From a virus (taxonomy: Duplodnaviria > Heunggongvirae > Uroviricota > Caudoviricetes): DNA of 19,160 bases. The stretch is from the IMG/VR virus record IMGVR_UViG_648276647_000017, positions 1-19,160 of that record. One strand, 5' to 3'. The notes below the pieces were generated by a model. It did not search any database. It was not told the DNA's origin and worked only from the letters and a program-made list of their open reading frames with translations. Every line of letters starts with the position of its first letter. Position 1 is the first letter of the stretch. The position numbers and the translations under genes are program-made. Positions 1 to 19,160 of this stretch are shown piece by piece.

Positions 1-282
1 ATTCTCCCTATTGCCCCAGCGTTCCATAATCCAGTGGATCCACTCCTCCTGCTTAGGGAAGAGTAAAAACGGAATGGTCACCGGCAGGCCATAATCAATA
101 TTACGCGGGTCCGTTGTCATGCCCCAGTCGATGATGAACTGAGCCGGATTGGTTCGGTAAAACTGCTTCAATACGGGCAATATTTCAGGATTCTGGCGAA
201 TGCGCTGTAGGCGTTCCATCCGCCATTCAAAAACCATCTGGTAATCAGGATGTTTAAAATCGAAGGGGAATGGTAACGGCAT
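1..282 (-). CDS. Terminase large subunit, N-terminal fragment (gene continues beyond the window start)
   Basis: Open minus-strand frame from ATG at 282..280 running off the window edge; my own translation begins [72 protein letters not shown]. Start lies 3 bp downstream of the terminase small subunit stop, the usual coupled small/large arrangement. Product assigned by position and resemblance to phage large terminase N-termini, not by any search. Confidence 0.5.
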
Positions 283-284
283 AC

Positions 285-857
285 TTAGCCCATCATTTTT
301 CTATACGCCTCTGCAGCCTGCTCCGGCGTTAAGTTGGTAATTTCTGTTCTGACGGGTCCTCCATCAGCGCCAGTCACTTCATTTTTGACGTTGTCTTTAA
401 ACGCCTGAACAGAAACATGACGCCCAAGCAACTCAAGGTTTTTTACCTTATCAGGCCACTTAATCTTTTTAAGGATCCCGACCATTTCTCTGTCATCTCC
501 TCGCCCTTCAAACATTTCAGCGAGGTTAAATCCACTCAGGTACCGACGCCACGATTCCGGCCACGCAGACAGAGGCTTAATACTTAAATCGTCCTCCAGG
601 ATGTCAGCCACATCGAGCCTGTCGATCTCAACCAGTCGCATCAGCACATAATTCGCATCAATGCCCAGTTGATCAATACGCTCCTGCTTTAGCTCGTTGA
701 TGCGGGCACGTATCTCAGGTTTACCGTATAGTTCAGCCCCCGTAACATGTGCTCGCCTGGAGGCGTAGCCTGCGCGAATAGCTGCTTGTGTAGCATTAAG
801 ATCGACAAGAAACTCCCGACAAAACACCTCGTGTTTTGCTTTCAGCTCCTTAGTCAT
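285..857 (-). CDS. Phage terminase small subunit (Terminase_2 / P27-like family)
   Basis: 190-aa ORF; N-terminus [49 protein letters not shown] matches the conserved [18 protein letters not shown] signature of this family; sits directly upstream of the large terminase start. Confidence 0.85.
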
Positions 858-918
858 TTTATTTTCCAGTTATCAGGTCATTATCGAAGCCCCTCCAGGA
901 AGAGCTTCTGTAATGCTA

Positions 919-1443
919 TTACCGGGATTGTTCTATTTGTCGGACACCAGCCAACTGGTTATTCGCCTTCTCGATGGCTGCCAACAATGGGTTAATCCAC
1001 AGAACAACCTGGCAATATGTCAACGTTCTGGTGGTAGTGGCACGATCACCGGCTGAGTCAATGTCCCCGGAATCGGCGTGCAATGCGCTGGCGCGTAAAC
1101 GGTTCGCGTAGTTGAGCAACCCGACAGCAATATCAACAGGAACAGGGAAATCACAGTTCTTTTCACGGAGCAGAACCTCACGGTATTTGATGACTGTCTT
1201 CTCGTGACCGATGTCGACCAGAGAATTTAATCGGCTTGCGTTTTCTGCTATCTGGTTAAAACGATTGAAGTTTAATGCCTGATTAGCTATCACTTTCCCT
1301 TGATATTCAGCTTCACCTTCCGCTTTATCAGCCCGCAACTTTTCTGCCTGATACTTGCTGTGGTAATGGTTTGCAGACCAGACGAGCGCCCCAAAGACAG
1401 AGAAGAAAAATGCCGCGATGACAATCTTATAAGTCAGCTTCAT
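919..1443 (-). CDS. Rz: Rz-like i-spanin (inner-membrane spanin, lysis)
   Basis: 174-aa ORF immediately after the endolysin with overlapping start; N-terminal transmembrane segment (IVIAAFFFSVFGALVW) followed by a charged, helical periplasmic domain; carries an embedded +1-frame lipoprotein ORF (Rz1). Confidence 0.8.
   Translation of the reverse strand: MKLTYKIVIAAFFFSVFGALVWSANHYHSKYQAEKLRADKAEGEAEYQGKVIANQALNFNRFNQIAENASRLNSLVDIGHEKTVIKYREVLLREKNCDFPVPVDIAVGLLNYANRLRASALHADSGDIDSAGDRATTTRTLTYCQVVLWINPLLAAIEKANNQLAGVRQIEQSR
1020..1166 (-). CDS. Rz1: Rz1-like o-spanin (outer-membrane lipoprotein) embedded in the +1 frame of Rz
   Basis: Hand translation of the alternative minus-strand frame inside Rz: GTG(1166..1164) MKRTVISLFLLILLSGCSTTRTVYAPAHCTPIPGTLTQPVIVPLPPER stop (TGA at 1022..1020). 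Basic N-region, hydrophobic core, lipobox LLSG-C, proline-rich mature peptide with one Cys; GAGG about 9 nt upstream. Too short for the supplied ORF track. Confidence 0.55.
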   Translation of the reverse strand: MKRTVISLFLLILLSGCSTTRTVYAPAHCTPIPGTLTQPVIVPLPPER

Positions 1444-1903
1444 TTACCACCCCACCAGCATCTTTAAACCTGGAAATCAGGTCACCGATTTTATGTTCAT
1501 ACTGACCGTAACCTGCACCAGGTAACGACGCCCAGATATTGCTGCAACGGTCGATTGCCTGACGAATATCGCCACGGTCAATCATCGGTAAAACGCCACG
1601 CTCTTTAATCTGCTGCAGCGCCACAGCGTCCTGACTTTCTGGCGAAAAATCTTTCAGGCCAAGCTGCTTGCGGTAGGCATCCCACCAGCGTGAAAGAAGC
1701 TGATACCGGCCTGCAGCTGTTGATTTAAGCTTCGGGTTTAGCGTGACAAGTTTGCGAGGGTGATCGGAGTAATCAGTGAACAACTCACCTCCGACGATAA
1801 CGTCATAACCGTGATTACGTGTCGGTTGTCGCCCATTATCCGTTCCTTCTGACCATGCCACCATATCCAGGAAAGCTTTACGTTGGGAATTTAGTGTCTG
1901 CAT
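1427..1903 (-). CDS. R: Endolysin, lambda R-type lytic transglycosylase
   Basis: 158-aa ORF; QRKAFLDMVAWSEGTDNGRQPTRNHGYDVIVGGELFTDYSDHPRKLVTLNPKLKSTAAGRYQLLSRWWDAYRKQLGLKDFSPESQDAVALQQIKERG is near-identical in pattern to phage lambda R as I recall it, including the catalytic WSEGT region. Confidence 0.9.
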   Translation of the reverse strand: MQTLNSQRKAFLDMVAWSEGTDNGRQPTRNHGYDVIVGGELFTDYSDHPRKLVTLNPKLKSTAAGRYQLLSRWWDAYRKQLGLKDFSPESQDAVALQQIKERGVLPMIDRGDIRQAIDRCSNIWASLPGAGYGQYEHKIGDLISRFKDAGGVVNEADL

Positions 1904-1906
1904 GAA

Positions 1907-2266
1907 TTACTCCTTAGAGCCACCAAACTTGTTACCGATTACTCGCATTGCAGCCCCACGAATAGCATCGACACCGATCAGCCCAACACCACCACCAATG
2001 GCAACAGAAAGCGATTTAGGCCATCCAACATACTCAAGAGCGGATGCAAAGGTCAGCGTCAGAGCACCACAGAGCAAAATCTCAAGCGTTTTTCGTTTCC
2101 AGCCGCCGCCACCGCCAAAATAGGCAATGCGCAAGCCAGCCATAACAATTGACATAACCACTGCGCCCAACGGCGTATCTCCACGCCACCAACTTTGTAA
2201 GAGTTCCAGTAAGTCAGGCCAGGAATGAGGAGCATTGTGCATTTTCATACTTCCCACCTCCGCCAT
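1907..2266 (-). CDS. S: Class I holin, lambda S-like (three predicted TM segments); likely true start at the MKM motif (2248)
   Basis: ORF directly upstream of the endolysin; three hydrophobic segments (LGAVVMSIVMAGLRIAYF, TLEILLCGALTLTFASAL, SLSVAIGGGVGLIGV) and a charged C-terminus; internal Met-Lys-Met at residues 7-9 preceded by GGAGGTG, resembling the lambda S107/S105 dual start. The track start at 2266 has no Shine-Dalgarno. Confidence 0.7.
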   Translation of the reverse strand: MAEVGSMKMHNAPHSWPDLLELLQSWWRGDTPLGAVVMSIVMAGLRIAYFGGGGGWKRKTLEILLCGALTLTFASALEYVGWPKSLSVAIGGGVGLIGVDAIRGAAMRVIGNKFGGSKE

Positions 2267-2349
2267 TACGGGGTGTTGTTGAAAGGCGGGCCCTGCGTAT
2301 ACGCCCGTAGGATTGGGTTATGAGCCGTCCTTCGGTGGGCCCTGAATAC

Positions 2350-2372
2350 AAAAAAAGTTCGCCATAGCGAAC
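2350..2372 (-). terminator. Candidate intrinsic terminator in the late leader (tR'-like), between Q and the holin
   Basis: On the minus strand: GTTCGC-tatg-GCGAAC (6-bp perfect stem, 4-nt loop) followed immediately by TTTTTTT; about 85 bp upstream of the holin start, the position expected for the terminator that Q-modified polymerase reads through. Confidence 0.45.
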
Positions 2373-2651
2373 CCTGTTAAATTTGTTAAAAAAGGAAGTT
2401 ATTTAACATAATGTACGTTATAGGAACCACACGATCACCGCTCGCAATAGATTTGCGATGAAAGGCCTATTTAATCAACTTAAGTGGTCCAGAATGACGA
2501 AATTCGAGTGAATAAAAGGTGCATAAAAAAGGGCAAAAACTGCATAGCGTTTTTTCGCGACGAAAACCCTGTTTTATTAACTTTTACTGAGAATAGAGCA
2601 TTAAAAAAGCCCCAATGATTTGGAGCTCTTCGTTGAGGTCAGAAATTCAAC

Positions 2652-3086
2652 TCATACCAGCGTAGCGCAGTTTTTGCGTAGCGCACTAATACTTTTTTCA
2701 TCCCTTTGAATTTCGACCTCAGGATCCATCTGAAGGCTCACACCCAGCATGCAGAGACACCCCTCAATGAATCCCTCTGCTACCTGCAACTGCTGGCGGA
2801 TAAATCCTTCAGAACAGCGACGCCGCCGCCCTATCTCACGTTTGCTTAACCCGTAGACGTAGTACAGCATAATGACGTCCAGTTCCTCAGGCTTACGGAC
2901 CTGCTGCAGCCGACAGACGCAAGCATCGATAATCAGGCCATCGTCGTCACAGCAACTCAGCCTGCCAGGCGAGCTGCTGACTACCAGCCCTTTAAATCCC
3001 GCCGCTATTGGAGCCCAGCTCACTGTGGTGTTGCTATCGGCAGCCCATCCACCCCAGCGCTCTAAAACCTGTTGAATATTACGCAT
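2652..3086 (-). CDS. Q: Late-gene antitermination protein Q
   Basis: 144-aa ORF positioned between the replication gene and the lysis cassette; MRNIQQVLERWGGWAA...IAAGFKGL...CCDDDGLIID...YYVYGLS...IEGCLCM resembles the lambdoid Q family (Cys-rich zinc region, conserved ERWG and AAGFKGL). Confidence 0.8.
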   Translation of the reverse strand: MRNIQQVLERWGGWAADSNTTVSWAPIAAGFKGLVVSSSPGRLSCCDDDGLIIDACVCRLQQVRKPEELDVIMLYYVYGLSKREIGRRRRCSEGFIRQQLQVAEGFIEGCLCMLGVSLQMDPEVEIQRDEKSISALRKNCATLV

Positions 3087-3216
3087 AGCTCTGACCTCTA
3101 CGTTTTGCTACGAAAAATTTTTCTGAGAACTACGTCTGTTTATCCGTGGGTGTGGATAACGCAGTTCCGATCCGCATATTGCATGTATCAACATGCAAAA
3201 AGTTGCTAATTCGGAG

Positions 3217-3403
3217 TGGAACCACCTGCCCCCACCTGGAACCACCTTTTCCTAACCTTTCCCTCAATCGACTTATATATATATGGGGTTTCTAGTAGAA
3301 AGGCGGTTCCAGTGGTTCCAGTAGTTCCGCCCCGCTTGCCACAAGGTCTGCAAGGTGGAACCACCTTCTCTTCTAGGTGGTTCCGCGTGGTTCCAGCGGT
3401 TCC
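3217..3403. repeat. Iteron array flanking an AT-rich element; candidate origin of replication
   Basis: Nine copies of the hexamer GGAACC/GGTTCC in both orientations (3218, 3238, 3306, 3314, degenerate 3323, 3357, 3379, 3389, 3398), mostly within extended TGGAACCACC-type units, flanking the run cgacTTATATATATATGG (3269-3286). The array overlaps the 3' end of the primase gene and lies upstream of Q. Confidence 0.5.
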
Positions 3404-5559
3404 CAAACCTTGCATTTTTTCCCCCCAATTCGCCTTTGGGCACGCTTATACCCGCAATTTTGCAAAACATTACTAATTCGCATTTCTTCGCGTTTTCCGA
3501 TGCGGTCAGGATTTAGCCCAATCGCATCACGCAAAACATCACTTGCGCGTAAAAATTCGCAATTTCGCGGAAGTTCATTAGTCATCAGGTCGGGCGTGTC
3601 GAGCCATTTCTCTACCGTTTCAAGCCAAGCATCCTTGATGGTGTACTGTTCATGGACACTCGCTGCCAGTTGTTCAGCCTCACGGAACTGGATACCCCCC
3701 AGACGCTGAAACACCTCACGAGCCTCAGCCCAAAGTAAAAGAAGATCTCTTTTTATCGCTTTCACGTCGACTTTCGACACTTCCACGGGGAGCCAGCGAC
3801 GGTTACCAGTCTTGTCCGCAAGGAATTCGTCCTCATTAGTGGTACCAACGAACACCAGGCGACGAGGAAACTGGGTGGCGAACTCCCGGTATTTCGGGAT
3901 CCAGTTTTCGTGAGTACGCGTCACAAACGCTTTGATTGACTCCAGCTCTTTGGTATTAAGTCCGCGCAGTTCACCAATCTCTGCCACCAGCCGACCACGC
4001 ATTTTTCGAGCGAGATCATCGTCTTTTTCGGCAAAAGAGATTTCAGTAAAAAACGCAGGATCAGGGCTCAGTGCCTCCACTCCGGAAGACTTACCGCAGC
4101 CCTGCGGACCAACGAGGATCGGCACCATATCCGCTTTGATGCCTGGCTCCAGTACTCGCCCCGCCAACGCGGTCCACATGTACATAGACACCGCACGGGT
4201 ATAAGGCGTGTCGGCGGTACCGAAGTGCGTATGGTAGAAACATTCGATGCGCGGCACGCCATCCCACTCCAGTCCGTTCAGCCAGGTGATCGCTGAATCG
4301 AATGGTTGTTCATCGGCTGCAAGTAACACCACATCGCGAATAAGTTCACGACCAACAGGTTTAAATCCCCGCTTTTCCATCGTGATGCGCAGGCGCGCAT
4401 AATCCGCATCGGTGAAGGCCTGCCACTGGCCGGAGCCTGCCTGGGCGAACATGATTTCGTCACGGAACTGGTCAAAGCGAATATCGATGTCCACGAAGTC
4501 AGGACGCACAACGGCTTTTGCCGCGTTGCTGATGGTGGCCTCGATGCGGCCCCATTTGTCGCGCTCGAACGCCGGCAGCGGTAACGGCTCGGCCACTTCG
4601 GTGCTGGTCAGGTCTTCGAAATCGTCGTTGCGGATCCCGATGGCATTAAGGAAATCGCCGTCGTCGCGGTGCGCGCAGCTGGCGTGCAGGCACTTAAAAT
4701 GCCCCTGCTCAAAGCCCGCGGTACCGCCCGGGAAGTAAACCGTGCTCGTCGGGTCGCCGCCGGTGCTGTGGCCGTCTTCGAACGGGCAACGGATATAGCG
4801 CTCGCCGTTCGCGCCGTCCAGCAGCGTCCAGCCATTGGCATCGAGATATTCCGCCGTATCATCCGTGGCGCCGGGCGTGAAGGTTGAACGGTCGCGCATC
4901 TTCGTGCTGCCCGCTTCGGTGGTGACCGACACAGGTAACTGTTCCGCCAGTCGCTGCCACAGCGTTTCAAGCTGCTCACCAGTAATAGCCGGAGGTTCAT
5001 CCGGCAAACCGCCGTCCCATTCGATACGCGCGCCGCTGCTGTGCGTACCGCAGGCAACAAACTGCTGCCCGTTCGCCAGCAGCTCGATAATCCCCATATC
5101 GCCCGCCAGACGGTGGATGCGCTTACGGAAATCGCCGTCAACGGCCAGCAGGTACAGGCATTTGTTACTGTTGGCGCGCCAGCGACGCGGCGGCAGCTCA
5201 CCAAGCAGCTGCACCAGCGTTTTGCGAATATCGGCCTGGATATCTTCGTCTTCGCTGTCGCAGTCCAGCGCCAGCCAGCCATGGCCTGTACGCACGCAGA
5301 TGCCATAATCCGGTTCATTCGACCAGCGGGCAAAATCATGCTCAGTAACAACATGACTGGTCCATTGAGCAATACCGGTGACCTGACGGTCCCGGTTATA
5401 GCGACTTGGCGTCTTACCCAGCGCTTTCAGTTTACTGTCAGGGGATATAGTCGCACCGGGGTTACATACAACTGGGAGAAGATGAGCAGTTCGCCCCAAT
5501 ACCAGGTCGAAATGAAACCACTCATCAGGCGTAGCTCCCCATGGTTTGCTATCAGACAT
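3373..5559 (-). CDS. Bifunctional primase-polymerase / primase-helicase (PrimPol N-terminal domain plus P4-alpha/D5-like P-loop NTPase C-terminal domain)
   Basis: 728-aa ORF; Walker A motif GPQGCGKSS in the C-terminal half, N-terminal region typical of archaeo-eukaryotic-type primase-polymerases of phages and plasmids; AAGG Shine-Dalgarno 7 nt before the ATG; first replication gene downstream of the cro-like gene. Confidence 0.85.
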   Translation of the reverse strand: MSDSKPWGATPDEWFHFDLVLGRTAHLLPVVCNPGATISPDSKLKALGKTPSRYNRDRQVTGIAQWTSHVVTEHDFARWSNEPDYGICVRTGHGWLALDCDSEDEDIQADIRKTLVQLLGELPPRRWRANSNKCLYLLAVDGDFRKRIHRLAGDMGIIELLANGQQFVACGTHSSGARIEWDGGLPDEPPAITGEQLETLWQRLAEQLPVSVTTEAGSTKMRDRSTFTPGATDDTAEYLDANGWTLLDGANGERYIRCPFEDGHSTGGDPTSTVYFPGGTAGFEQGHFKCLHASCAHRDDGDFLNAIGIRNDDFEDLTSTEVAEPLPLPAFERDKWGRIEATISNAAKAVVRPDFVDIDIRFDQFRDEIMFAQAGSGQWQAFTDADYARLRITMEKRGFKPVGRELIRDVVLLAADEQPFDSAITWLNGLEWDGVPRIECFYHTHFGTADTPYTRAVSMYMWTALAGRVLEPGIKADMVPILVGPQGCGKSSGVEALSPDPAFFTEISFAEKDDDLARKMRGRLVAEIGELRGLNTKELESIKAFVTRTHENWIPKYREFATQFPRRLVFVGTTNEDEFLADKTGNRRWLPVEVSKVDVKAIKRDLLLLWAEAREVFQRLGGIQFREAEQLAASVHEQYTIKDAWLETVEKWLDTPDLMTNELPRNCEFLRASDVLRDAIGLNPDRIGKREEMRISNVLQNCGYKRAQRRIGGKKCKVWEPLEPRGTT

Positions 5560-5734
5560 GGGTTAAGCCTTTTTGTTTGACTACATTTTTTTGCTCCAAA
5601 ATCTTTTCAAGTTGAAGAGCTCTTAGCTCTGGGATTTCCTCCCCCCATTGAGATACGGCTCCTTTGGAAACCTTCAATAGTCTCGCTAGTTTCGCTTTAC
5701 TTCCTGCAAGCTCAATTGCTTCTGCTTTTTTCAT
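5552..5734 (-). CDS. Cro-like HTH regulator (Cro/CI-type, YdaS-like)
   Basis: Small ORF divergent from the CI-type repressor; helix-turn-helix region LAGSKAKLARLLKVSKGAVSQW. The track begins at a GTG (5743); the ATG at 5734 (MKKAEAIELAG...) is my preferred start. The 3' end overlaps the primase start. Confidence 0.6.
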   Translation of the reverse strand: MKKAEAIELAGSKAKLARLLKVSKGAVSQWGEEIPELRALQLEKILEQKNVVKQKGLTHV

Positions 5735-5743
5735 ACCCGTCAC

Positions 5744-5847
5744 CCAGGAAATATATGGTTATATGAGGTTAAGAAAACTAAACCCACAAGTCAAGAAAGC
5801 GATACCCTGATTAAGTTAAGCTAACTAAACTATATGAGGGTAAAACC
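5744..5847. promoter_or_regulatory. Immunity-region operator/promoter block between the divergent cro-like and CI genes
   Basis: Two copies of a 16-bp near-palindromic motif, GTTAAGAAAACTAAAC (5768-5783) and GTTAAGCTAACTAAAC (5815-5830), 14/16 identical. On the minus strand a TTGACT -35 (5794..5789) with a 17-nt spacer to TAACCT (5771..5766) overlaps the first copy, consistent with a CI-repressed cro promoter. Confidence 0.5.
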
Positions 5848-6540
5848 ATGATTAATGATCGTATTCGCGAGGCTCGTCGCAATGTCCACCTAACGCAGGA
5901 TGCGCTTGCTAAACGTATTGGTCTAACTAAAGCCACGATTTCACAATGGGAATCCGGAAACACCACACCTAACGGGAAAAATCTTATAAATCTGGCCGAA
6001 GCATTGAACGTTTCTCCAGAGTGGCTACTTTCAGGCAAAACAAGCGATACCAAAGAAATACATTCTAATGCACAAGTTGAGGGGGGGTTTTCTGTATGGG
6101 ACTCATCAACGCCATTAGAGGATGATGAAGTGGAAATACCGTTCTATCAGGAAATTGAACTATCTGCCGGTAATGGTACTTATGTTGATATAGATCGAAT
6201 GGGATGTAAGTTAAGATTCGCCCGTTCAACGTTGCGCAAAGCAGGTGTTGACGTAAATTGTGCGGCTTGTGTCAGCATCCACGGCAACAGCATGGAACCG
6301 GTATTACCAGATGGCGCTGTCGTCGGCATAGATACATCAAAAACAGGTGTAAAAGATGGTCAAATGTACGCTATAGACCAAGACGGATTACTTCGTGTCA
6401 AACTATTGTACCGTCTCCCAAGCGGACTCCGGATACGCTCTTTCAATAGGGATGAATACGCAGACGAAGAGTATTTTAATCAAGAGGCTAATAAAATCAG
6501 GATTATAGGCCAAGTATTTTGGTACTCCGTTCTGCTCTGA
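5848..6540 (+). CDS. cI: CI-type prophage repressor (N-terminal HTH_XRE, C-terminal S24 LexA-like autopeptidase)
   Basis: 230-aa ORF; HTH (LTQDALAKRIGLTKATISQWESG), candidate Ala-Gly cleavage site in ELSAGNG, catalytic Ser in GNSMEP and Lys in LRVKLL; GAGGG Shine-Dalgarno 7 nt upstream; divergent from the cro-like gene. Confidence 0.9.
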   Translation: MINDRIREARRNVHLTQDALAKRIGLTKATISQWESGNTTPNGKNLINLAEALNVSPEWLLSGKTSDTKEIHSNAQVEGGFSVWDSSTPLEDDEVEIPFYQEIELSAGNGTYVDIDRMGCKLRFARSTLRKAGVDVNCAACVSIHGNSMEPVLPDGAVVGIDTSKTGVKDGQMYAIDQDGLLRVKLLYRLPSGLRIRSFNRDEYADEEYFNQEANKIRIIGQVFWYSVLL

Positions 6541-6564
6541 GCGTAAATTCACTCTATACCACAT

Positions 6565-6591
6565 GCCCGCTTCCTAAGCGGGCTTTTCTTT
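6565..6591 (+). terminator. Intrinsic terminator downstream of the CI gene
   Basis: GCCCGCTT-cct-AAGCGGGC (perfect 8-bp stem, 3-nt loop) followed by TTTTCTTT, 25 bp after the CI stop codon. Confidence 0.65.
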
Positions 6592-6629
6592 ACCTATCCG
6601 AAAAAGTTCACTTTTCTTAACTACAACAC

Positions 6630-6685
6630 TTGACTTTGTGAGTTTAGAGGTCTTAACTATATGCGTGAAGTTAAGATATCTATAC
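6630..6685 (+). promoter_or_regulatory. Candidate CI-controlled early promoter (pL-equivalent) with two further operator-like motif copies
   Basis: TTGACT at 6630-6635 with a weak -10 (TTAACT, 6653-6658) at 17-nt spacing; operator-like copies GTTTAGAGGTCTTAAC (6642-6657) and GTTAAGATATCTATAC (6670-6685) share the GTTAAG-N4-CT(A/T)AAC pattern of the cI/cro intergenic sites. Confidence 0.3.
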
Positions 6686-6852
6686 ACAGATATTTAAACT
6701 ACAAGTCGAACGGCGCGACTCTAAACCATGCGTCGGGACCGTGGCGGGACAGGATGTCGGCAATACGGGTCAGTAAGTTCCCTTTGGGGTGCGGCGAAGC
6801 ACTGGGTCGAAGCCGCCGAACCACCAAAGTGAACTGAATGAGGAATCACAAG

Positions 6853-7047
6853 ATGCCTAAATATAAACTGGTTAATGACCTGGCTATCGGCGACAAAATT
6901 GAATTCAGTGGAAAACGGATAATGGAGGTTACCCAAAAAACTGACCGCGACCAGCATAACGTTAGCCTGACTCTAGTTAACAAACATACAGGTTCTGCGA
7001 CTAATACTTGTTTTAACCGAATGGATACCGTCGTCCTTCCCCCATAA
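6853..7047 (+). CDS. Hypothetical small protein (64 aa), stand-alone unit between the immunity region and the early operon
   Basis: ATG at 6853 (MPKYKLVNDLAIGDKIEF...) with a GAGGAA Shine-Dalgarno about 6 nt upstream; the track ORF starts earlier at 6838. Bracketed by the CI terminator upstream and a hairpin plus T-tract downstream. No family recognised. Confidence 0.45.
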   Translation: MPKYKLVNDLAIGDKIEFSGKRIMEVTQKTDRDQHNVSLTLVNKHTGSATNTCFNRMDTVVLPP

Positions 7048-7089
7048 CAATCCTCTGAATCCTCCATGTAATTGCTGTGTGTAGTCTTT

Positions 7090-7117
7090 GCCCGCCTCAA
7101 GTGACGGGCTTTTTTAT
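7090..7117 (+). terminator. Candidate intrinsic terminator after the small ORF
   Basis: GCCCGCC-tcaagt-GACGGGC (7-bp stem with one mismatch) followed by TTTTTTAT. Confidence 0.45.
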
Positions 7118-7141
7118 GTCTGAAAGCGCACTCGCAACAGC

Positions 7142-7324
7142 GTGCTCCCCGATATGAAAAAAGGAATACAACCGATGAAACCTGAACACATCCATCGACT
7201 GACGGGGCGCGATGTTCTCCGTTATCGCCGTAAAAACTTCGATTTGATGACCGGTCTGGCCGTTGCCACTGCGCTCGGTCTGATCATCACTTTCATTCTC
7301 CTTGTAGCGAGGCCCACAGTATGA
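7142..7324 (+). CDS. Hypothetical small tail-anchored membrane protein
   Basis: ORF ending in a single hydrophobic helix (LMTGLAVATALGLIITFILLV); the track start at 7142 is a GTG, alternative ATGs at 7154 and 7175, the latter with an AAGGAA Shine-Dalgarno (49-aa product); stop overlaps the start of the next gene (7321). Confidence 0.4.
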   Translation: MLPDMKKGIQPMKPEHIHRLTGRDVLRYRRKNFDLMTGLAVATALGLIITFILLVARPTV

Positions 7325-8223
7325 GTTTAGAAACCAGTCTAGAACTTAATAATCAACTTCTGGCACAACATAATGCGCTGCTTGAACGTCTTATCCGCAC
7401 AATGGCATCAGGCATTGTTATGCATCCTGACACGATTTCACGAGTGCAGGAATGTCGGGATACAGCAACTGAAACTGAAAATATGTCAGCGGCAATGACA
7501 CTGGATGATCTGGAGTTCAGCGACGTTATCGCACTGGCTGGTTTCTACCCGGTAGCCACCCCTATCACAGAAGACATGCTGCAACGTGCTGTTGCCTACC
7601 GTGATGCTGAAGGCGATAAACGAGTAGTTCAGATTGATGCTCTCGACAGCGCATTGCAGGGCGTCAAACGAGCCAGGGCGCTGCTTAAACCTGCTCTCCT
7701 GGACCTGTCCCGTAACATCCTTAAGTTCTGGGACGACCTGCCAACCATCGGCGAGCGACGTGCTTTTGCCGAGCAGCTACTTGATGCACCTGCGGATGGG
7801 CGTGATGAAGTTAAGCCGAAAAAGGCCAGTAACAAGGATGGAGAACGCACGGGGCCGTTTTACGTCAAAAATGTATCCGGCACAGCAGCCAGTGAACTCC
7901 ACACCTTACGCAAGTTGAACGAGATGCTGAAAAAAGGCCATATCGAGATCAACCGTGTTGAGTACCTTCAGCTGCAGGAAGAATTTGCACGCAGAGACGC
8001 AGCAAATTCCAGCCAGAATAATGACGCCAAAGATGACCATACAATTGATTTCGCGGCACTACGCAAACAAGCTGAAGGGTTGATCCTCCAGTTAGCAAAA
8101 GGGGGTTACCGGGCAGAAGCTATTGCAATTCTGGAAAAACAGGGAGCCAGGAAACTTGGTGAAGTAACGGATGAAAATCTCGCTGAAGTAATCACCCTGG
8201 CTGAAAAAGCACTGGAGGGTTAA
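7321..8223 (+). CDS. Hypothetical phage protein (300 aa), first large gene of the plus-strand early operon
   Basis: Long ORF, translationally coupled to the neighbours on both sides (4-bp overlap upstream, 2-bp gap downstream); acidic and helical, no recognisable catalytic motif. Confidence 0.55.
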
Positions 8224-8225
8224 TC

Positions 8226-9527
8226 ATGCCAGACGTTCATGCACAACTTTCTCCATCATCAGCGCATCGATGGATGCGCTGCCCAGGAAGTCTGGCGCTG
8301 GAGGCCACACAACCGGATAAAGAAACAACTTTTGCAATCGAGGGCACTGCAGCGCACGCGCTTGCTGAAAAAGTTCTACGAAACAGGCAAAGCCACCCGG
8401 AACACTACGCCGGATGCAATGTTTCTATGTTTCTCGGCTCATACCCCCTTCGCGAAAATCCTGATGATACATCTGGCCCACAGGTGGATGATGAAATGGT
8501 CGAAGCCGTTGGCCGGTATGTTGATACGGTCTGGACTCTTGCACAGAATAATGAACTATTGGTTGAACAACGTGTTGATTTCTCACATATAACGGGTGTG
8601 GAAGAATCTTTCGGAACTGCCGACGGCATAATCATCGCTGGTAACGAATTACAAATCCACGACCTGAAATATGGCAAAGGCGTCCGCATTGATGCAGAAC
8701 AAAATGAGCAACTACAACTGTATGCTCTGGGTGCGCTTGAACAATTCAGCATGCTGTATGACTTTGAAACTGTAAGATTATTTATTCACCAACCAAGGCT
8801 CAACCACGTTTCAGAATGGTCGTTAACCGTACAGGAACTTCAGTCTTTCGGTGAACGGGCGCTGGAGGCCGCAACCAGTGCGATCCTTGTTCTCAATATT
8901 GCTGAATGCGAAGGCATTGAGACACTACCGCTGGAAAACTTCATACCTGGAGAAAAACAGTGCCGCTTCTGTAAAGCAAAAGCTATTTGCACTGCCCATA
9001 AAATGCAGCATTTACAAACAGCGGCCAGCGATTTTGAAGATCTGACAAAGCCTGTCAGCGAAATAATCACCAATGCCAGCGCACGTGTACCTCTGTTAAC
9101 CATTGAGCAGCTTGCGGAGATCTATAGTCAGGCCGACTTTATTGAATCCTGGCTAAAGGCAGTACGGGACCGGGTTCACAATGAACTCAATGCCGGACAT
9201 CCGGTACCGGGGTTTAAACTGGTAACAGGAAAACAAGGTAACCGGGCCTGGAGTGATGAAGAGGCAGCTCGCGCACTTCTGAAGGACCAGTTCAGGTACA
9301 AAACTGAAGAAGTATTCGACTTTAAACTTATTAGTCCCACAAAAGCCGAAAAACTTATCAAAAAGGCCAGTCCGCGCCGTTGGTCAAAAGTCGAGGCACT
9401 GATAACACGAGCTGATGGTAAACCAACCGTCGTTCCCGAGTCAGACCCACGCCCCGCACTCAATATCAACCCTGTAAATGATTTCGACGACGTATCCGAC
9501 GATACGCTAACCGCAGACCTCATCTGA
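8226..9527 (+). CDS. DUF2800-family PD-(D/E)XK nuclease (Cas4/RecB-like, with C-terminal Cys cluster)
   Basis: 433-aa ORF; N-terminal [15 protein letters not shown] signature, nuclease core around [20 protein letters not shown], Cys cluster [10 protein letters not shown]; typical partner of DUF2815 and phage PolA. Confidence 0.8.
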
Positions 9528-9542
9528 TTTAAGGAAATACCC

Positions 9543-10091
9543 ATGAAACTGAAGCTGAACAATGTTCGTCTGGCCTTCCCGTCTCTGTTTGAAGCTAAAA
9601 CTGTAAACGGCGAAGGCGATCCACGTTTCTCCGCAGTATTTTTAATGTCACCCAAACACCCACAACTGGAAGAAATCCGTAAAGCTATGAAGCAGGTAGC
9701 GAAGGAAAAATGGGGAGAGAAGTGGGAGCCCATTTATAACCAGCTGGAGAAAAAACTCAATCTGTGCCTGCATGATGGTGATGAAAAAGCAGAGTATGAA
9801 GGCTTCCCCGGTAATTTCTTCCTGAATGCTGCTAACAAAGCGCGCCCAGCTGTTCTTGATCGCGATCGTTCGCCACTTATTCAGGCTGACGGACGTCCCT
9901 ATGCAGGGTGCTATGTAAACGCCGTTATCGATATCTGGGCACAGGACAATAATTTCGGTAAACGCATTAATGCCTCACTCGGCGGAGTCCAGTTCCTGCG
10001 AGACGGCGATGCATTCGCTGGCGGCGGAGTGGCAAGCGCTGACGATTTCGACGATATCAGCGAAGGTGCTGATGCTGAAGCACTAATTTAA
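9543..10091 (+). CDS. DUF2815-family protein (phage single-strand DNA-binding-like)
   Basis: 182-aa ORF; MKLKLNNVRLAFPSLFEAK start and acidic C-terminal tail (DDFDDISEGADAEALI) characteristic of this SSB-like family; immediately follows the DUF2800-like nuclease. Confidence 0.75.
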   Translation: MKLKLNNVRLAFPSLFEAKTVNGEGDPRFSAVFLMSPKHPQLEEIRKAMKQVAKEKWGEKWEPIYNQLEKKLNLCLHDGDEKAEYEGFPGNFFLNAANKARPAVLDRDRSPLIQADGRPYAGCYVNAVIDIWAQDNNFGKRINASLGGVQFLRDGDAFAGGGVASADDFDDISEGADAEALI

Positions 10092-10142
10092 AAATATTCA
10101 TCCCCCAGCTACGTGCTGGGGTATCTCATGAGGGAAAGTATA

Positions 10143-10784
10143 ATGTCACAGCCCGTATTAACTAATCACCTTAAAACTCAAATCATCAATAACGCACTTG
10201 AGAAAGCGGGTATTCCCAAACGTAAATCAGCACTACGAGCTGCTCGTGTTGAATGGGCCGAACGTGTTCGGCTTGCAGCTATCGGGGGCGTAGAGAAAGA
10301 AGCTGAAATATTAAAAAATATAAAAAAGATTGAATCCATGGTCACAAAAGTCCCTGATTCATTAAAAACCAATAGTTCTTTAATTCGAAAAGATTGCTGC
10401 ATATATCTCAATCTGGCTGGAGCCAGAGCAAACATTTATTTCAATGGCAACTACAGAGGTTATGAATCAGGAGCCCCCGAGCATATTAATAAAATAGCAC
10501 CTGCAGAATTTACTCTACTTGGCGAAGATCCTCTGGTAACGGAGTTTTATAGCTTTGATGCTCTCTACACACAAATTAAAAGTGATGAAACCGAAATCAT
10601 ACAGAACGTCAGCGCGGCTCTAAATAAAGTTCGGACAGTAAAACGATTACTGGATGTATGGCCCGAAGCTAAAGAGCTGCTTCCAACAGACGCACCGCCA
10701 GTCCCTTTAGCACCAGCAGTACATCGAGAGACATTAAATGAAATGATAGGCCTTCCTACCAATACAGTGTCTGATACTCAATAA
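10143..10784 (+). CDS. Hypothetical protein (213 aa), AT-rich accessory gene
   Basis: ATG at 10143 (MSQPVLTNHL...) preceded by GAGGGA about 7 nt upstream; the track start at 10113 is a GTG lying inside a hairpin. Markedly AT-richer than the flanking replication genes; no family recognised. Confidence 0.5.
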   Translation: MSQPVLTNHLKTQIINNALEKAGIPKRKSALRAARVEWAERVRLAAIGGVEKEAEILKNIKKIESMVTKVPDSLKTNSSLIRKDCCIYLNLAGARANIYFNGNYRGYESGAPEHINKIAPAEFTLLGEDPLVTEFYSFDALYTQIKSDETEIIQNVSAALNKVRTVKRLLDVWPEAKELLPTDAPPVPLAPAVHRETLNEMIGLPTNTVSDTQ

Positions 10785-11467
10785 CAAGGGGGATGCTTAT
10801 TATATGATTTTGAACGTTTTACAATCTCGTTAAGAGGCGTGAAATCAAAATCTCTGAATAACACATCAGGATACTTCGCTCTTGCTTTATCCAGCAAACC
10901 AGTTAAAGTATTTTTTGTGTTACCCAACATTGTATTAACCGCCACTACATGTCTAATTTCTGGAGGTTTATCTATACCACCAGAAATTGCTTCATTAAGA
11001 ACCGACGCCAGTGGGGTTTGTCCCTTACTTGTTGAATCCCACAGCGTCATTAACAGACGAGCTGCGTCTATAAATAGCTTTTTGTCAGCATTTGGCTTGA
11101 CAGTAATACCGGAACTACCTGAGCCAGAACCGGAACGTTCTATTGCTGCACTGGCATCCGATTTCATAGGATTAAATAACGGAAGCTCTGTACAACCGAT
11201 ACGCCGAATGAAATCCTTTGCAACATCTCTACCACAGAAAAAAGCCCCTGTACAATTTTCATCAGAGCGTTTTTTAAATGAAAAACAATAGTACTGATCG
11301 GTTAACGGATAACCGGAATAACTGGTTTTAGTTTGTCCAGTAATAAGTTTCAGGTGTGCAACAGGCTGAATAATAAAATCCCGAACTATCGCATCTTTTA
11401 TGTCGTTACCACGGTGACAATAATATTCAGGTAATCCATTAGGCTGTCTCTTATTACCCACAGTCAT
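10778..11467 (-). CDS. Hypothetical protein (229 aa), AT-rich accessory gene antisense to the replication operon
   Basis: Minus-strand ORF whose 3' end overlaps the previous gene by 7 bp (convergent); Cys/aromatic-rich N-terminal domain (YYCHRGN...QYYCFSF...NCTGAFFCGRD), a GSGSGSSG linker and a distinct C-terminal domain; no family recognised. Confidence 0.55.
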   Translation of the reverse strand: MTVGNKRQPNGLPEYYCHRGNDIKDAIVRDFIIQPVAHLKLITGQTKTSYSGYPLTDQYYCFSFKKRSDENCTGAFFCGRDVAKDFIRRIGCTELPLFNPMKSDASAAIERSGSGSGSSGITVKPNADKKLFIDAARLLMTLWDSTSKGQTPLASVLNEAISGGIDKPPEIRHVVAVNTMLGNTKNTLTGLLDKARAKYPDVLFRDFDFTPLNEIVKRSKSYNKHPPCY

Positions 11468-11528
11468 TAGTTGTCTCCTTTAATTCATGATATCTAGCAT
11501 TTAACCATATACCATATGAGGATATTTT

Positions 11529-13592
11529 ATGTCCAATATACTATGGGGCGACCTGGAAACCTATTGTGACATTCCGATCAACAACGGTACCCATGCGTAT
11601 GCCGAAGGCGTTGAAGTGATGCTTTTCGCATGGGCTATCAACGACGGGCCAGTAAACGTGTGGGATATCACTGCCGGTGGTGGTATTCCACACGGCTTAT
11701 ACGAAGCAATCGCAGATCCTGAAACCCTGCTTTATTTCCATAACTCTCACTTCGACCGCACCGTTCTGCGTTATGCAATGCCGCGACTGGCACCGCCAGT
11801 CGAACGTTGGCGCGACACGATGGTGCAGGCGCTGGCGCACGGTCTCCCGGGGTCTCTGGGAGAACTCTGCGAAATACTAGGCGTCCCGCAAGACAAAGCG
11901 AAGGACAAAGAAGGTAAAGCGCTGATCCAGCTGTTCTGTAAGCCACGCCCGAAAAACAGCAAACTGCGTCGGGCCACCAGCAAAACCCACCCAGAAGAAT
12001 GGCGGCGCTTTGTTGCTTACGCCGGACTGGATATCGAGGCAATGCGCGAAGTCTGTAAACGTCTGCCGAAGTGGAATTATCAAGGGACAGAGCTGGCGCT
12101 CTGGCATCGTGATCAGCAGATCAACGACCGGGGCGTCTGCATGGACATGCAACTCGCGCGCGCTGCGATCGAAGCGGTAGACCAGGAGCAAAAGCGCCTG
12201 GCAAAGCGTACACAGGAAATGACTGATGGCGAAGTGCAGGCAGCCACACAACGAGACGCGTTGATTAAGCACATTGTTGAATCCTACGGTGTGGAGCTAC
12301 CAGACATGCAACGCAGTACTCTGGAACGTCGTATTGCCGACCCCGATTTACCATCTGCCGTGAAAGAACTGCTGGCTATCCGACTGCAGGCCAGTACTAC
12401 CAGCACCAGTAAATACAAGGCACTGATGAAAGGCGTAAGCCACGACGGGCGCTTACGCGGTACGCTACAGTTCTGCGGGGCGTCACGTACCGGTCGTTGG
12501 GCCGGACGGCTATTCCAGCCCCAGAATCTTCCCCGCCCTTCACTAAAACAGGAACAAATAGACGAAGGCATCGAAGCACTGAAAGCCGGATGTGCAGACC
12601 TGCTGTTTGACAATATCATGGAACTAACCAGTTCAGCGTTACGTGGCTGCATTATCGCGCCAACAGGCAAAAAAATGGTGGTAAGTGACTTGTCGAACAT
12701 TGAAGGCCGTATGCTGGCATGGCTGGCAGGAGAAGAATGGAAACTGAATGCATTCAGAGAGTACGACGCCGGAACGGGTCCGGACTTATATAAACTGGCG
12801 TATGCAAAAGCTTTCGATATTGCACCAGATGATGTTGATAAACACATGCGTCAGATCGGTAAAGTCATGGAACTCGGTCTGGGTTATGGTGGTGGTGTGT
12901 CGGCCTTCATCACTTTTGCACTGGTTTACGGTCTCGATCTCGACGAGCTGGCAAACGCTGCACTGCCAAACATTCCCCGCGATGTTATCCGCGAGGCGAA
13001 AAGCTGGTACGGCGAATCGGTTAAACGTAAGTCAACCTACGGCCTTTCTGAACGGGTATTTATCGCCTGCGACTCACTTAAACGTCTCTGGCGCCGGGCG
13101 CATCCCGCGACCTGTGATTTCTGGTACGAACTGGAGCGCACCGTCCGCACTGCAATCGCCACACCGCAAAAAACATTGTATTGCGGTTATCTTAAAATCC
13201 GCCGCGATGGCGCGTGGCTGCGCATACAGCTACCATCCGGACGCGCTGTATGCTACCCGTCTCCGGTTATCGAAAAAGGGAATATCACCTACATGGGTGT
13301 TAACTCTTATTCGCGTAAATGGCAACGACTCAAAACCTACGGCGGAAAGCTGGTGGAGAACGTCACCCAGGCGGCCGCCCGCGACGTTCTGGCCGGAAAC
13401 ATGCCGCTTATCGAAGATGCCGGTTACAGCATTGTGCTGACGGTACACGACGAGGTGATCACCGAATCACCTGACACAGAAGATTTCAACGATAAAGCGC
13501 TTTCCGCGCTTCTCTCCACTAACCCCGAATGGGCGCCCGATATCCCACTGAACGCTGGCGGTTTTGAGGCGTACCACTACCGTAAGGATTAA
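11529..13592 (+). CDS. Family A DNA polymerase (phage PolA with N-terminal 3'-5' exonuclease domain)
   Basis: 687-aa ORF; Exo I motif (WGDLETYCD), polymerase motif A ([19 protein letters not shown]), motif B ([16 protein letters not shown]), motif C (VLTVHDEV); GAGGA Shine-Dalgarno upstream. Confidence 0.9.
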
Positions 13593-13597
13593 CTCCT

Positions 13598-13813
13598 ATG
13601 TCATTTAAATACCGGGATAATCCACTTTATTACAGGGCTGCAAGGGAGGCTTTGCGACTTGAACAATCCGGCGAATATGACCGGGCAGCGAAGGTCTGGG
13701 CAAAAGCCAACCGCGAATCACATCACGAACTGAATCAGGAATGGAGTGAACGCCGGTCTGAATTTTGTCTGATGCAGAACATGCGCGAAAAGCGTAAGGC
13801 GGTCGAAGAATGA
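13598..13813 (+). CDS. Small regulator-like protein, possibly PerC/Pch family
   Basis: 71-aa ORF translationally coupled to PolA; AAREALRLEQSGEYDRAAKVW resembles the LE..GL.RRAA..W core that I recall for PerC-family activators. Family assignment is tentative. Confidence 0.45.
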   Translation: MSFKYRDNPLYYRAAREALRLEQSGEYDRAAKVWAKANRESHHELNQEWSERRSEFCLMQNMREKRKAVEE

Positions 13814-14070
13814 TGCGTAATACAGCGAAACTACAACTGGGGTTCTCCCCGCTATCCAAAAAGATCATGTTGGCAAAAATGCGCGATGTTGACGGCGGTC
13901 GCTTGCGAGTTGGCAATGACCCTGGGCGTGACGTAACGAACGAAGCCGCGCAGTTAGTTTGGCAACTGGTAATGGCAGAAGGCGGCGAAATTAGCTGGGG
14001 TCTTGATGATGGTAGCCAGATGGTACTGAGGGCTGAAAAGCAGGTGTGGAATGATGGCCTACGAACGTGA
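13810..14070 (+). CDS. Hypothetical small protein (86 aa)
   Basis: ORF with ATGA start/stop overlap to the upstream gene and a 20-bp overlap with the downstream VRR-NUC gene; no family recognised. Confidence 0.4.
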   Translation: MMRNTAKLQLGFSPLSKKIMLAKMRDVDGGRLRVGNDPGRDVTNEAAQLVWQLVMAEGGEISWGLDDGSQMVLRAEKQVWNDGLRT

Positions 14071-14347
14071 AAGCCTTATCGAAAAGCACCTCGTCGCCGA
14101 AGTGAAAAAGGCTGGCGGGGTCGCCTTTAAGTTCGTGTCACCCGGTCGCCGCTCGGTACCGGATCGCATTGTCCTGCTACCCGGCGGTCGCATCGTCTTT
14201 GTCGAATGCAAAGCGCCAGGCAAACCACCACGGCCTGACCAGTTACGCGAGCACGAACGGCTGCGTGCGCTGGGCTTTACCGTGGTGGTATTAGATAGCA
14301 AAAATCTGGAGGGGATATTGTGCGGGGAGCCTATTACAACGAAATAG
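14051..14347 (+). CDS. VRR-NUC domain nuclease (PD-(D/E)XK fold)
   Basis: 98-aa ORF; core PDRIVLLPGGRIVFVECKAPG supplies the D...E.K catalytic pattern typical of VRR-NUC proteins; AGGTG Shine-Dalgarno upstream. Confidence 0.8.
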   Translation: MMAYERESLIEKHLVAEVKKAGGVAFKFVSPGRRSVPDRIVLLPGGRIVFVECKAPGKPPRPDQLREHERLRALGFTVVVLDSKNLEGILCGEPITTK

Positions 14348-15348
14348 ACCCTAACGCAGCACAATGGCTGCGTAACCTTATTGCTGCAGGTCATATCGCC
14401 CCGGGTGAAGTTGATGAAAGGAGTATCGAAGATGTCGCACCAGACGACTTGCGCGGATTCACACAGTGCCATTTCTTCGCCGGGATCGGCGTCTGGTCTT
14501 ATGCTCTGCGTCTGGCCGGATGGCCGGATAACAAACCGGTCTGGACAGGAAGTTGCCCGTGCCAGCCTTTCAGCTCGGCTGGTAAAGGCGCTGGGTTTGA
14601 TGACGAGCGGCACCTATGGCCAGCACTATTCCACCTCATCAGCGAGCGACGCCCTAAGCTGGTATTTGGCGAACAGGTTGCGGGAGTCAATGCCTGGTTC
14701 GATCTTGTACAAACTGACGTGGAAGCAGTGGACTACGCCTTTGGGCTTGTCCCGTTTCCGGCTGCGGGCGTCGGTGCCCCGCATATCCGAGATAGAGCGT
14801 ATTGGGTGGCCGACGCCAGCGGCGAGCGATCACAGCGGTGGCGAAAGCGCCTCAATAGCATTGAGGAAGATGTCTGGAGATCGTCGACCGTCCGGCAACA
14901 CGCTACACAGCTCCCTGCGGAATTTTGCTCACCTGGCGGGGTGGTACACCCCAACCTGCAACACAAACCCACAGCCGGAGACAAAACGCGGTCTAGAAAC
15001 CTTAGCGGGACTATCCAGATTAGCGGGATGGCCGACAGTGACGACGATCGACAACAACCAAGTTCGTGCCGAGGGCGCAGCGGCCAATCATACCGAACGG
15101 GGAACGACCCTCGGCGGCGCTGCGAGAATCTGCGGCCCAATACGATTAACGGCTTCTGGGATGGTGCTGACTGGCTCCTCTGCCGGGATGGTCGCTGGCG
15201 GCCAGTTGAATCCGGCACATGCCCGTTGGCTAATGGGATTACCTCCAGAGTGGGACGACTGCGCGCCTACGGCAACGCGATAGTCGCACCAGCTGCCGCA
15301 ACATTCATCCGCTCGTTTATGGAATGCGCAGGATACGACCTTATTTAA
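14320..15348 (+). CDS. DNA cytosine-5 methyltransferase (Dcm-like), apparently split across two reading frames
   Basis: GTG start at 14320 with a strong GGAGGGG Shine-Dalgarno. Frame 1 carries C5-MTase motifs ([27 protein letters not shown]) and a C-terminal motif-X-like [12 protein letters not shown]. The overlapping frame-2 ORF (14381-15283) carries GWPTP-type repeats and [17 protein letters not shown]. Confidence 0.65.
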
Positions 15349-15665: not shown

Positions 15666-15699
15666 TAAACAATCCTCCTGAATTTTAAAGGGTTACATT

Positions 15700-18685: not shown

Positions 18686-18890
18686 TCTCAATCCTTATCT
18701 GCGTAGGCGCAGAAAACAAGCTCACACATACAAGTCTTTTCTACGGGACAAAATGCAATGTGTTGCGGTTTTGTGTTGCTGGACTGAGTTTATCAAGGTT
18801 AAATACACTGGATCAACATACAGTAAGTTAATGACAGTAAAGCATACAAACTCGATACAACTTACTGATTTTAAAATGATTTAACGGTAA

Positions 18891-19160
<270 letters not shown>

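Follow-up and report, generated by a model that had tools for sequence, protein, structure and literature searches.

The question raised by this locus is whether a cluster of short repeats at the 3' end of a primase-helicase gene is the replication origin of the phage that carries it and, if so, what kind of origin it is. The locus lies in the IMG/VR record IMGVR_UViG_648276647_000017 (Caudoviricetes), of which positions 1–19,160 were analyzed; this stretch of 19,160 bp, called here the window, covers the half of a temperate prophage that holds the early and lysis genes. An earlier note on it, made from the letters alone, had proposed an iteron-type origin with an unwinding element, built of GGAACC hexamers around an alternating TA tract and comparable to the lambda origin (ori) inside gene O. 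Our analysis indicates that the array (3218–3403) is very probably the replication origin of the phage, of the self-loading Rep-helicase type known from Staphylococcus aureus pathogenicity islands (SaPIs) and other phage-inducible chromosomal islands (PICIs). Comparative and structural data strongly support an iteron-type origin that has an unwinding element and is served by the replication protein encoded next to it. The lambda analogy fails: the initiator is not of the O family, the array is not inside the initiator gene, and short convergent words flank the melting site.

The hexamer GGAACC, counted on both strands, occurs ten times in the window; eight copies fall within 3218–3403 (exact hexamers start at 3218, 3238, 3305, 3314, 3357, 3379, 3389, and 3398) and two lie elsewhere. 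With 0.097 copies expected in 186 bp, the Poisson P(≥8) is 1.8e-13; the cluster was equalled in none of 200,000 random placements, and no other hexamer of the window clusters in this way. The repeat unit comprises 9–10 bp, GGAACCRCCT, and is present in ten copies, eight with the exact GGAACC core and two degenerate, namely AGTTCC with one mismatch (3323–3328) and GCCCCCACCT (3228–3237). Hence, the cluster claimed in the earlier note is real and its local enrichment is confirmed by the motif count, complete relatives having a single cluster as well; however, only eight of the nine hexamers reported there are exact, the ninth being the one-mismatch copy. The isolated GGAACCAC at 2423–2430, listed there as a tenth copy, is present, although as a chance copy, at the frequency that chance gives; it was rejected as a part of the feature, since isolated copies in relatives do not track the iteron type of the origin. 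GGAACTGC at 3161–3168, considered as an eleventh iteron, was rejected because the same sequence occurs in the related locus L038, whose iterons are GTACCAAC.

The copies are arranged in sets of opposite orientation around a core. The sets are named from the gene that they face, the Q antiterminator gene on one side and the primase-helicase gene on the other:

3218–3247, plus strand: Q-side inner triad with 10-bp spacing, consisting of GGAACCACCT (3218–3227), GCCCCCACCT (3228–3237), and GGAACCACCT (3238–3247)
3248–3300: core between the inner triads, consisting of the complement of GGGAAAGGTTAGGAAAAGG (pyrimidine-rich), TTATATATATAT (3273–3284), and GGGGTTTCTAG
3301–3328, minus strand: gene-side inner triad, head-to-tail with 9-bp spacing, consisting of AGGCGGTTCC (3301–3310), AGTGGTTCC (3311–3319), and the degenerate AGTAGTTCC (3320–3328)
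3357–3366, plus strand: single opposed copy GGAACCACCT, forming an inverted pair with 3375–3384 across 8 bp
3375–3403, minus strand: gene-proximal tandem set, consisting of AGGTGGTTCC (3375–3384), GCGTGGTTCC (3385–3394), and AGCGGTTCC (3395–3403)

The core is the presumed melting and loading site. No 12-mer of the window is less stable than its segment TTATATATATAT (rank 1 of 19,148), and the G+C content of the 53-bp core is 34%, compared to 50% overall. The alternating TA tract between the iterons, described earlier as 3269–3286, does exist, although the actual alternating run is confined to 3274–3284, inside that range. In each of the enterobacterial specificity classes that were examined, the Q-side triad has a degenerate middle copy (e.g., GGTGGGGGC, GGTGGGTAC, and GGTTGTCAC), which suggests a deliberately weak central site; the gene-side triad is nearer to the word, and its outermost copy also varies in several classes.

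The stop codon TAG of the primase-helicase gene is at 3373–3375, so that three iterons (3375–3403) overlap its last ten codons, and the other seven, together with the TA tract, lie downstream of the stop in the 286-bp spacer ahead of the Q gene. The placement of the array on the replication gene itself, as in the earlier note, therefore holds for these three iterons and not for the remaining seven and the TA tract. The overlap is incidental; the tail that the three iterons encode (EPLEPRGTT) is unconserved, has a low-confidence structure (predicted local distance difference test score, pLDDT, 68), and is merely a product of the iteron sequence. In several relatives the stop codon comes before the gene-proximal iterons, and all iterons are then downstream of the gene.

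The layout is conserved in relatives, of which 22 loci were obtained in a scan of one genome per GTDB species and 80 were kept of 188 IMG/VR matches; a phage collection added YeP4–6, the APSE phages, Caulobacter phages (Jess A), and the Acidovorax phage ACF1. Starting from the primase stop, nearly all loci whose 3' end is intact have one to three iterons, an opposed copy, a 9-bp triad, the TA core, and an opposed triad. An automated test, which required a TA run flanked on either side by two or more co-oriented copies and opposite orientations of the two sides, was passed by 91 of 100 loci, and most failures fit the layout by eye. The 9-bp triad was found in every specificity class.

The words themselves differ between loci, 15–19 of them being distinguished. 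Across the loci, the iterons fall into 19 nine-mer classes (GGAACCAC, GTACCAAC, GTCCCAAC, GTATCCAC, GTTACCAC, AGACAACC, AGACCACC, GAAGCCAC, GTAACAACC, AGTGTAGAA, GTCACCAC, and others). When ten specificity types are aligned, they show an almost invariant scaffold (ttactaagaaCCCCATATATATATATAAGTCG..GGGGAAAGGTTAGAAA) and concerted changes at all iteron positions. Enterobacterial loci with differing iterons have a nearly invariant core; its arrangement is visibly different in YeP4-type loci (L099, L100, L106) and looser in distant relatives, with a TATATA tract and, after it, a G/A-rich stretch in Orbaceae, the Acidovorax phage ACF1, and Burkholderiales, GGAAAGGTT itself being kept in the Burkholderiales loci.

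The array accompanies the primase gene whatever follows it, Q in some loci and an unrelated open reading frame (ORF) in others; a gene other than Q follows the array in YeP4, L002–L004, L007, and L009. Complete relatives have one cluster per genome and no second one. In the Yersinia phage YeP4, seven of the eight AGACAACC copies directly follow the primase stop; in APSE-1, all eight GTAACAACC copies follow the stop of P3, at 3350–3601; and in a 42-kb prophage of Escherichia coli O103:H2, 8 of 11 copies of GGAACCRC are within 183 bp after the primase stop.

Some loci depart from the standard arrangement. The arrays of L020 (Photorhabdus caribbeanensis) and L024/L108 (APSE-1) are enlarged to at least 14 copies and contain additional blocks of iterons outside the standard layout; in L015 (Candidatus Sodalis endolongispinus), unrelated sequence replaces the 3' end of the gene and the origin; and the locus of L019 (Symbiopectobacterium) is degraded. 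The hypothetical gene 'P4' of APSE-1 (L108, NC_000935; 3445–3666) is wholly inside the GTAACAACC array and is probably not a gene. The same probably applies to the ORFs over the array in the window, 3206–3415 (minus strand) and 3216–3476 (plus strand), because the sequence there changes word by word among relatives.

The protein encoded next to the array joins a primase-polymerase (Prim-Pol) domain of the archaeo-eukaryotic primase (AEP) type, a superfamily 3 (SF3) helicase, and a predicted winged helix:

3373–5559, minus strand: initiator gene, 728 amino acids, Prim-Pol (AEP), SF3/VapE-type helicase, and C-terminal winged helix
3397–3546, minus strand: codons of the predicted winged helix, residues 672–721, with a helix at 672–680
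residues 689–701 (KREEMRISNVLQN): presumed recognition helix, from the secondary structure of the model
residues 704–711 and 714–721 (KKCKVWEP): wing strands, from the secondary structure of the model
3412–3417, minus strand: codons of K715 and C716, which of all positions follow the iteron word most closely

Residues 48–185 match the Prim-Pol family PF09250 (E 6.2e-11), and residues 427–639 match the Pfam family VapE-like_dom (E 2.3e-60). The only solved structure found by sequence, in a phmmer search of the PDB, is that of SaPI1 Rep bound to DNA (7pds_A, E 9e-34), the identity to Rep1 being 22–24%. An AlphaFold (AF2) model of residues 331–728, built on 74 homologues, has a pLDDT of 93.9 and ends in a helix-turn-helix and a beta hairpin (704–721), that is, in a predicted winged helix. 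The top Foldseek match of this model is again 7pds (E 3e-27, template modelling score, TM, 0.80), with 448 alignment columns for a chain of 457 residues; spanning nearly the whole of Rep1, the modelled match should include its C-terminal domain. Next come the primase-helicases of NrS-1, ASFV, poxviruses (D5/E5), and SaPI5, with TM values of 0.4–0.55 for those of NrS-1, ASFV, and poxviruses. A single-sequence AlphaFold model of the C-terminal 89 residues was unusable (pLDDT 58) and was not used for searching. Among the early-region ORFs scanned, no match to the O or P families was found, the only domains found being Prim-Pol and VapE.

Origins of this design have been validated experimentally in SaPIs and PICIs. 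SaPI Rep is a self-loading SF3 helicase whose C-terminal winged helix recognizes short iterons (Qiao et al., PMC9371898). The SaPI origin contains 6–12 penta- or hexanucleotide iterons immediately downstream of the rep ORF, at least two per side and in opposite directions, with an AT-rich center (PMC9371898); a pair of hexamers is believed to load, one per side (Qiao et al., PMC9371898). Similarly, in the origins of E. coli PICIs two iteron sets flank an AT-rich region, and EcCICFT073's pri-rep-ori segment drives plasmid replication (Fillol-Salom et al., PMC6092414).

The window resembles the SaPI Rep/ori systems (Rep1, PriRep5; PDB 7PDS, 7OLA) in the SF3 helicase with a C-terminal winged helix (a predicted one in the window), fused to a primase in the SaPI5 version; in an origin immediately 3' of the rep ORF (stop at 3373–3375, array at 3218–3403, about 100 relatives being alike); in the number of short iterons, ten being within the range of 6–12; in the existence of allelic Rep/ori specificities; and in an AT-rich center between opposed triads, 3218–3247 on the plus and 3301–3328 on the minus strand. 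It differs in the length of the iteron (9–10 bp as opposed to 5–6 bp), in the strictly AT-rich element, which is merely a 12-bp TA tract, and in the three iterons that enter the coding sequence. EcCICFT073, by its published description, is alike in the Gram-negative host, the two iteron sets flanking an AT-rich region, and the adjoining pri-rep, and differs in being a satellite rather than a phage. The element in the window is a full-size temperate phage with its own lysis genes, terminase, polymerase, single-stranded DNA-binding protein (SSB), and exonuclease. It thus uses the SaPI/PICI replicon type and is not a PICI, because the window has terS, holin, lysis genes, Q, cI/cro, polymerase, SSB, and integrase, and the O103 prophage has the set of head and tail genes.

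Likeness to other replicons is more partial. The alpha protein of phage P4 combines a primase, an SF3 helicase, and a C-terminal winged-helix origin-binding domain, and its octamer iteron occurs in both orientations; P4 differs in having two clusters (ori and crr) as opposed to one in the relatives of the window and, to our knowledge, its primase is not of the Prim-Pol (AEP) type, unlike that of the window's protein. Lambda ori shares iterons with an adjoining AT-rich region, an initiator of the phage's own, and a protein–site specificity that changes jointly among relatives. However, lambda has four long direct repeats inside O with the AT-rich region on one side, and O is no helicase, host DnaB being recruited by P, whereas the early-region ORFs scanned in the window lack an O/P match, seven of its ten iterons are outside the gene, and the sets converge around the melting site. 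In the origins of SV40 large T and papillomavirus E1, short inverted words stand beside AT-rich or easily melted DNA, and a double hexamer assembles. Iteron plasmids (RepA/pi/TrfA) have direct iterons of 17–22 bp in a single orientation, a Rep with two winged helices (WH1-WH2), and DnaA boxes through which the host helicase is loaded; the words of the window are 9–10 bp long and convergent, its initiator is a helicase, and its sole perfect DnaA box is outside the exchanged segment described below and is unconserved. ORF904 of the archaeal plasmid pRN1, a distant relation, also joins Prim-Pol, an SF3 helicase, and a DNA-binding domain; we know of no comparable iteron array in pRN1. For its minimal replicon, a sequence just downstream of rep is required (PMC4234260).

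By this comparison, the winged-helix domains of the initiator would bind iterons on both sides of the core, and two hexamers would assemble, one per side and facing each other. They would melt the TA core and then self-load as replicative helicases; the N-terminal Prim-Pol domain would prime, and the family-A polymerase, gp2.5-like SSB, and exonuclease of the phage would take part in elongation. The 9-bp spacing on the gene side would turn successive sites by about 50 degrees, which, as we infer from geometry only, would suit neighboring subunits of a ring encircling the duplex.

The association between the protein and its presumed sites is seen in the second wing strand of the model. It corresponds to the C-terminal motif G-K-x-x-[KR]-[VI]-[WF], which varies with the iteron word:

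wing KKCKVW: word GGAACCAC
wing KMTRIF: word GTACCAAC
wing KVQRVW: word GTAACCAC
wing KVLKVW: word GTATCCAC
wing KLMKVW: word GTTACCAC
wing KQQRVF: word AGACAACC
wing KKMRIF: word GTCCCAAC
wing KQIRVW: word AGACCACC

For 71 full-length proteins, which fall into nine classes, the mutual information of protein columns with the iteron class was calculated. Of the 728 positions, 716 and 715 are the most informative (0.83 and 0.70 of the class entropy, respectively), followed by the iteron-encoded tail and positions 707–708; all columns before 707 are at or below 0.33. The pairing of wing and word is retained on diverged backgrounds: GKKCKVW in the window and L020, GK[MV][TV]RIF in L038, L005, and L011, and GKQQR[VI]F in L070 and L001. 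The Caulobacter phage Jess A was set aside as an independent check on the wing code, because an insertion prevents confident alignment of its wing.

Relatives that are 97–100% identical on both sides of the origin carry another wing together with another iteron word, and this delimits an exchanged segment:

3167–3435: exchangeable 'specificity cassette', wing codons and the whole origin, about 270 bp

In a sliding-window comparison with L038, given relative to the stop, identity is 0.97–1.00 from −570 to −60, 0.47–0.83 from −60 to +208, and 0.90–1.00 from +208 to +328. A 20-nt direct repeat (17 of 20 positions matching) flanks the origin, at 3194–3213 and 3461–3480, the latter copy being the coding sequence of the presumed recognition helix (RISNVLQ); a corresponding pair is found in YeP4 (L001, 2243–2259 and 2517–2533). 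Both copies are near the edges of the swapped cassette, and they may be recombination anchors or the trace of an old duplication.

Several observations weigh against the array being the origin or against a direct reading of the wing–word association. Literature searches found no replication experiment on this element or on any other member of the phage group. The wing codons are at most 60 bp from the array and move jointly with it as one recombination cassette, so that linkage alone is expected to produce some wing–iteron covariation, which confounds the association. Nor is the wing code one-to-one, as L012 (GKSQRVY) and APSE-1 (GKVCRVW) both occur with GTAACAACC. The array as a whole has 53% G+C, i.e., it is not AT-rich, and the strictly AT-rich element is short, a TA tract of 12 bp within the 53 bp of lowered G+C. 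The cumulative GC skew does not turn at the array; we consider this uninformative, because a short phage segment is dominated by transcription. Finally, the single-stranded array folds better than all 200 of its shuffles (−41.2 kcal/mol, z −4.8) and, since it forms hairpins in this state, a structural role and a protein-binding role are not wholly separable.

Among the alternatives, the one that survives best, although unlikely, is that the array is a cis site bound by the initiator for enhancement or copy control, and that replication starts elsewhere. P4, which requires two separated iteron clusters, ori and crr, provides a precedent, as do plasmid iterons that act by handcuffing; PMC6092414 mentions the alpha protein of P4 together with its cognate site. 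In the window, the gene-proximal set (3357–3403) has no AT-rich center and could be a control or autoregulatory site. However, the genomes of YeP4, APSE-1, and the O103:H2 prophage each have a single cluster, which makes a P4-like accessory site unlikely, and the least stable DNA of the window lies between convergent triads, in the layout of the validated SaPI/PICI origins.

A role confined to transcription, with the array serving as operators or as a roadblock that times late expression from Q and having no part in replication, is improbable. The array does lie in the path from the cro-primase operon to Q, and Q is probably expressed by read-through across it, because no promoter or terminator consensus is found in between. 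In a scan of 2200–3700, nothing was called inside 3087–3420, hence the array is not explained as a promoter or an intrinsic terminator. Yet the array comes after the primase gene also in loci where a gene other than Q is next, its word covaries with the wing of the primase-helicase and not with anything downstream, and immunity operators would be expected between cI and cro (5744–5847), where GGAACC is absent. With the array as the origin, a roadblock effect on Q could still arise as a side effect of binding.

Slightly less probable again is a structured nucleic-acid element, such as a cruciform or hairpin origin, a stabilizer of the mRNA 3' end, or a terminator. It would account for the single-strand fold and for a 10-bp RNA hairpin that encloses the stop codon (z −2.8), and pRN1, another Prim-Pol/SF3 replicon, needs 166 bp downstream of rep (PMC4234260). 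However, any convergent repeats yield such folds; the inner triads cannot pair in register, because their periods differ (9 and 10 bp), and a hairpin does not require head-to-tail triads. The stem lacks a following T-run, no terminator was called, and Rfam at a permissive threshold gave no match in the array, only two sub-threshold chance matches outside it. That the array accumulated by chance or is a neutral remnant of tandem duplication has a negligible probability and is refuted by the comparison with relatives, as nothing beyond the ability of short repeats to arise by slippage speaks for it, while P is about 2e-13 and the layout is kept across phages of Enterobacterales, Orbaceae, Burkholderiales, and Caulobacter despite full turnover of the word.

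If the array is the origin, it is possible, and we propose it tentatively, that the origin is bipartite and modular, with a shared core and an exchangeable 'address' that moves between phages as one cassette. The shared core, CCCC-(AT)n-AAGTCG...GGGAAAGGTTAG, would be the common melting and priming site, read by the conserved primase-helicase body or by a host factor, and the 'address' would consist of about ten iterons and a few wing residues (715–716). Co-resident prophages would then keep private origins, and the family would offer a compact, readable code of winged-helix recognition, with at least 15 natural protein–word pairs on one scaffold. In addition, as Q appears to be expressed by read-through across the origin, initiator occupancy could gate the switch to late transcription.

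Three elements lie between the array and Q. A perfect DnaA box, TTATCCACA, at 3151–3159 (minus strand) is the only exact copy in the window and faces a two-mismatch copy, TTATCCGTG, at 3140–3148. It is shared by close relatives of both iteron types and degraded in L049 and L066, and we therefore assign it to the Q-proximal module; it was rejected as a part of the origin, being outside the swapped cassette and not conserved in relatives. Just past the array, at 3179–3198, there is a perfect 8-bp palindrome, TTGCATGT-N4-ACATGCAA, whose pattern TTGCA...TGCAA is kept at this position in loci whose iterons and downstream genes are different; an additional binding site or a weak promoter element could be present here. 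An AT-rich imperfect palindrome of 36 nt, ACGTTTTGCTACGAAAAA / TTTTTCTGAGAACTACGT (3100–3135), directly upstream of the Q ribosome-binding site, was not called a terminator.

The remainder of the window has the following genes:

285–857, minus strand: terS
919–2266, minus strand: lysis genes
2652–3086, minus strand: Q antiterminator
5552–5743, minus strand: cro
5848–6540, plus strand: cI
8226–9527, plus strand: exonuclease
9543–10091, plus strand: gp2.5-like SSB
11529–13592, plus strand: family-A DNA polymerase
plus strand: C5 methylase and SNF2-type helicase
17288–18691, minus strand: tyrosine integrase

The gene order of the early region is that of phage APSE-1 (P1 to P5, P53 to P41). A prophage of the same type is found in E. 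coli O103:H2 12009 (L110, 3144–3186 kb) between yfhH and yfhL; exact 20-mers common to it cover 71% of the window. This prophage, of about 42 kb, has a complete set of head and tail genes, and its type joins the APSE-like early region (Prim-Pol helicase, PolA, gp2.5-like SSB, exonuclease, SNF2 helicase, and C5 methylase) to a structural module of the contractile-tail type, including baseplate J/gp47. The segment with the origin and the helicase is present, with an identity of 80–99%, in 105 (about 2%) of 5,426 complete genomes of E. coli, and at the E. coli loci the RefSeq annotation of the spacer is empty.

Two further features of the window were observed. A terminator-like hairpin with a T-run (2354–2375, minus strand), in the 385 bp that separate Q from the holin gene, is plausibly the terminator of the late operon and the site of Q action. 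An ORF of 229 amino acids (10778–11467, minus strand), opposite in direction to the plus-strand replication operon in which it lies, has no Pfam or PHROG match; around it (10001–11000) the O103 prophage shares hardly any 20-mers with the window (0.08), and it is a candidate moron or accessory gene.

Origins of this kind have already been described in SaPIs and Gram-negative PICIs, and P4 and pRN1 are more distant cases. Two things are apparently new, the assignment of a Rep-type origin to complete temperate phages of the APSE-like/E. coli prophage group and the large natural set of wing–word pairs on one scaffold. Literature searches of incomplete coverage gave no earlier account of this origin for APSE-like or enterobacterial phages, although one may exist; in a comparative paper on APSE, the origin was placed with a skew program only.

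The result places the probable origin of widespread, little-studied temperate phages, including prophages of about 2% of the complete genomes of E. coli, enterohemorrhagic O103:H2 being one of them, and the relatives of the APSE phages that protect aphids through Hamiltonella, at a position where the existing annotation is empty or has a doubtful small ORF. On this assignment, the self-loading helicase replicon of SaPIs and PICIs would also be used by complete phages of Proteobacteria. The iteron words, at least 15 on a largely shared scaffold, each with a distinct wing, provide material for studying how winged helices read DNA and for orthogonal replicons.

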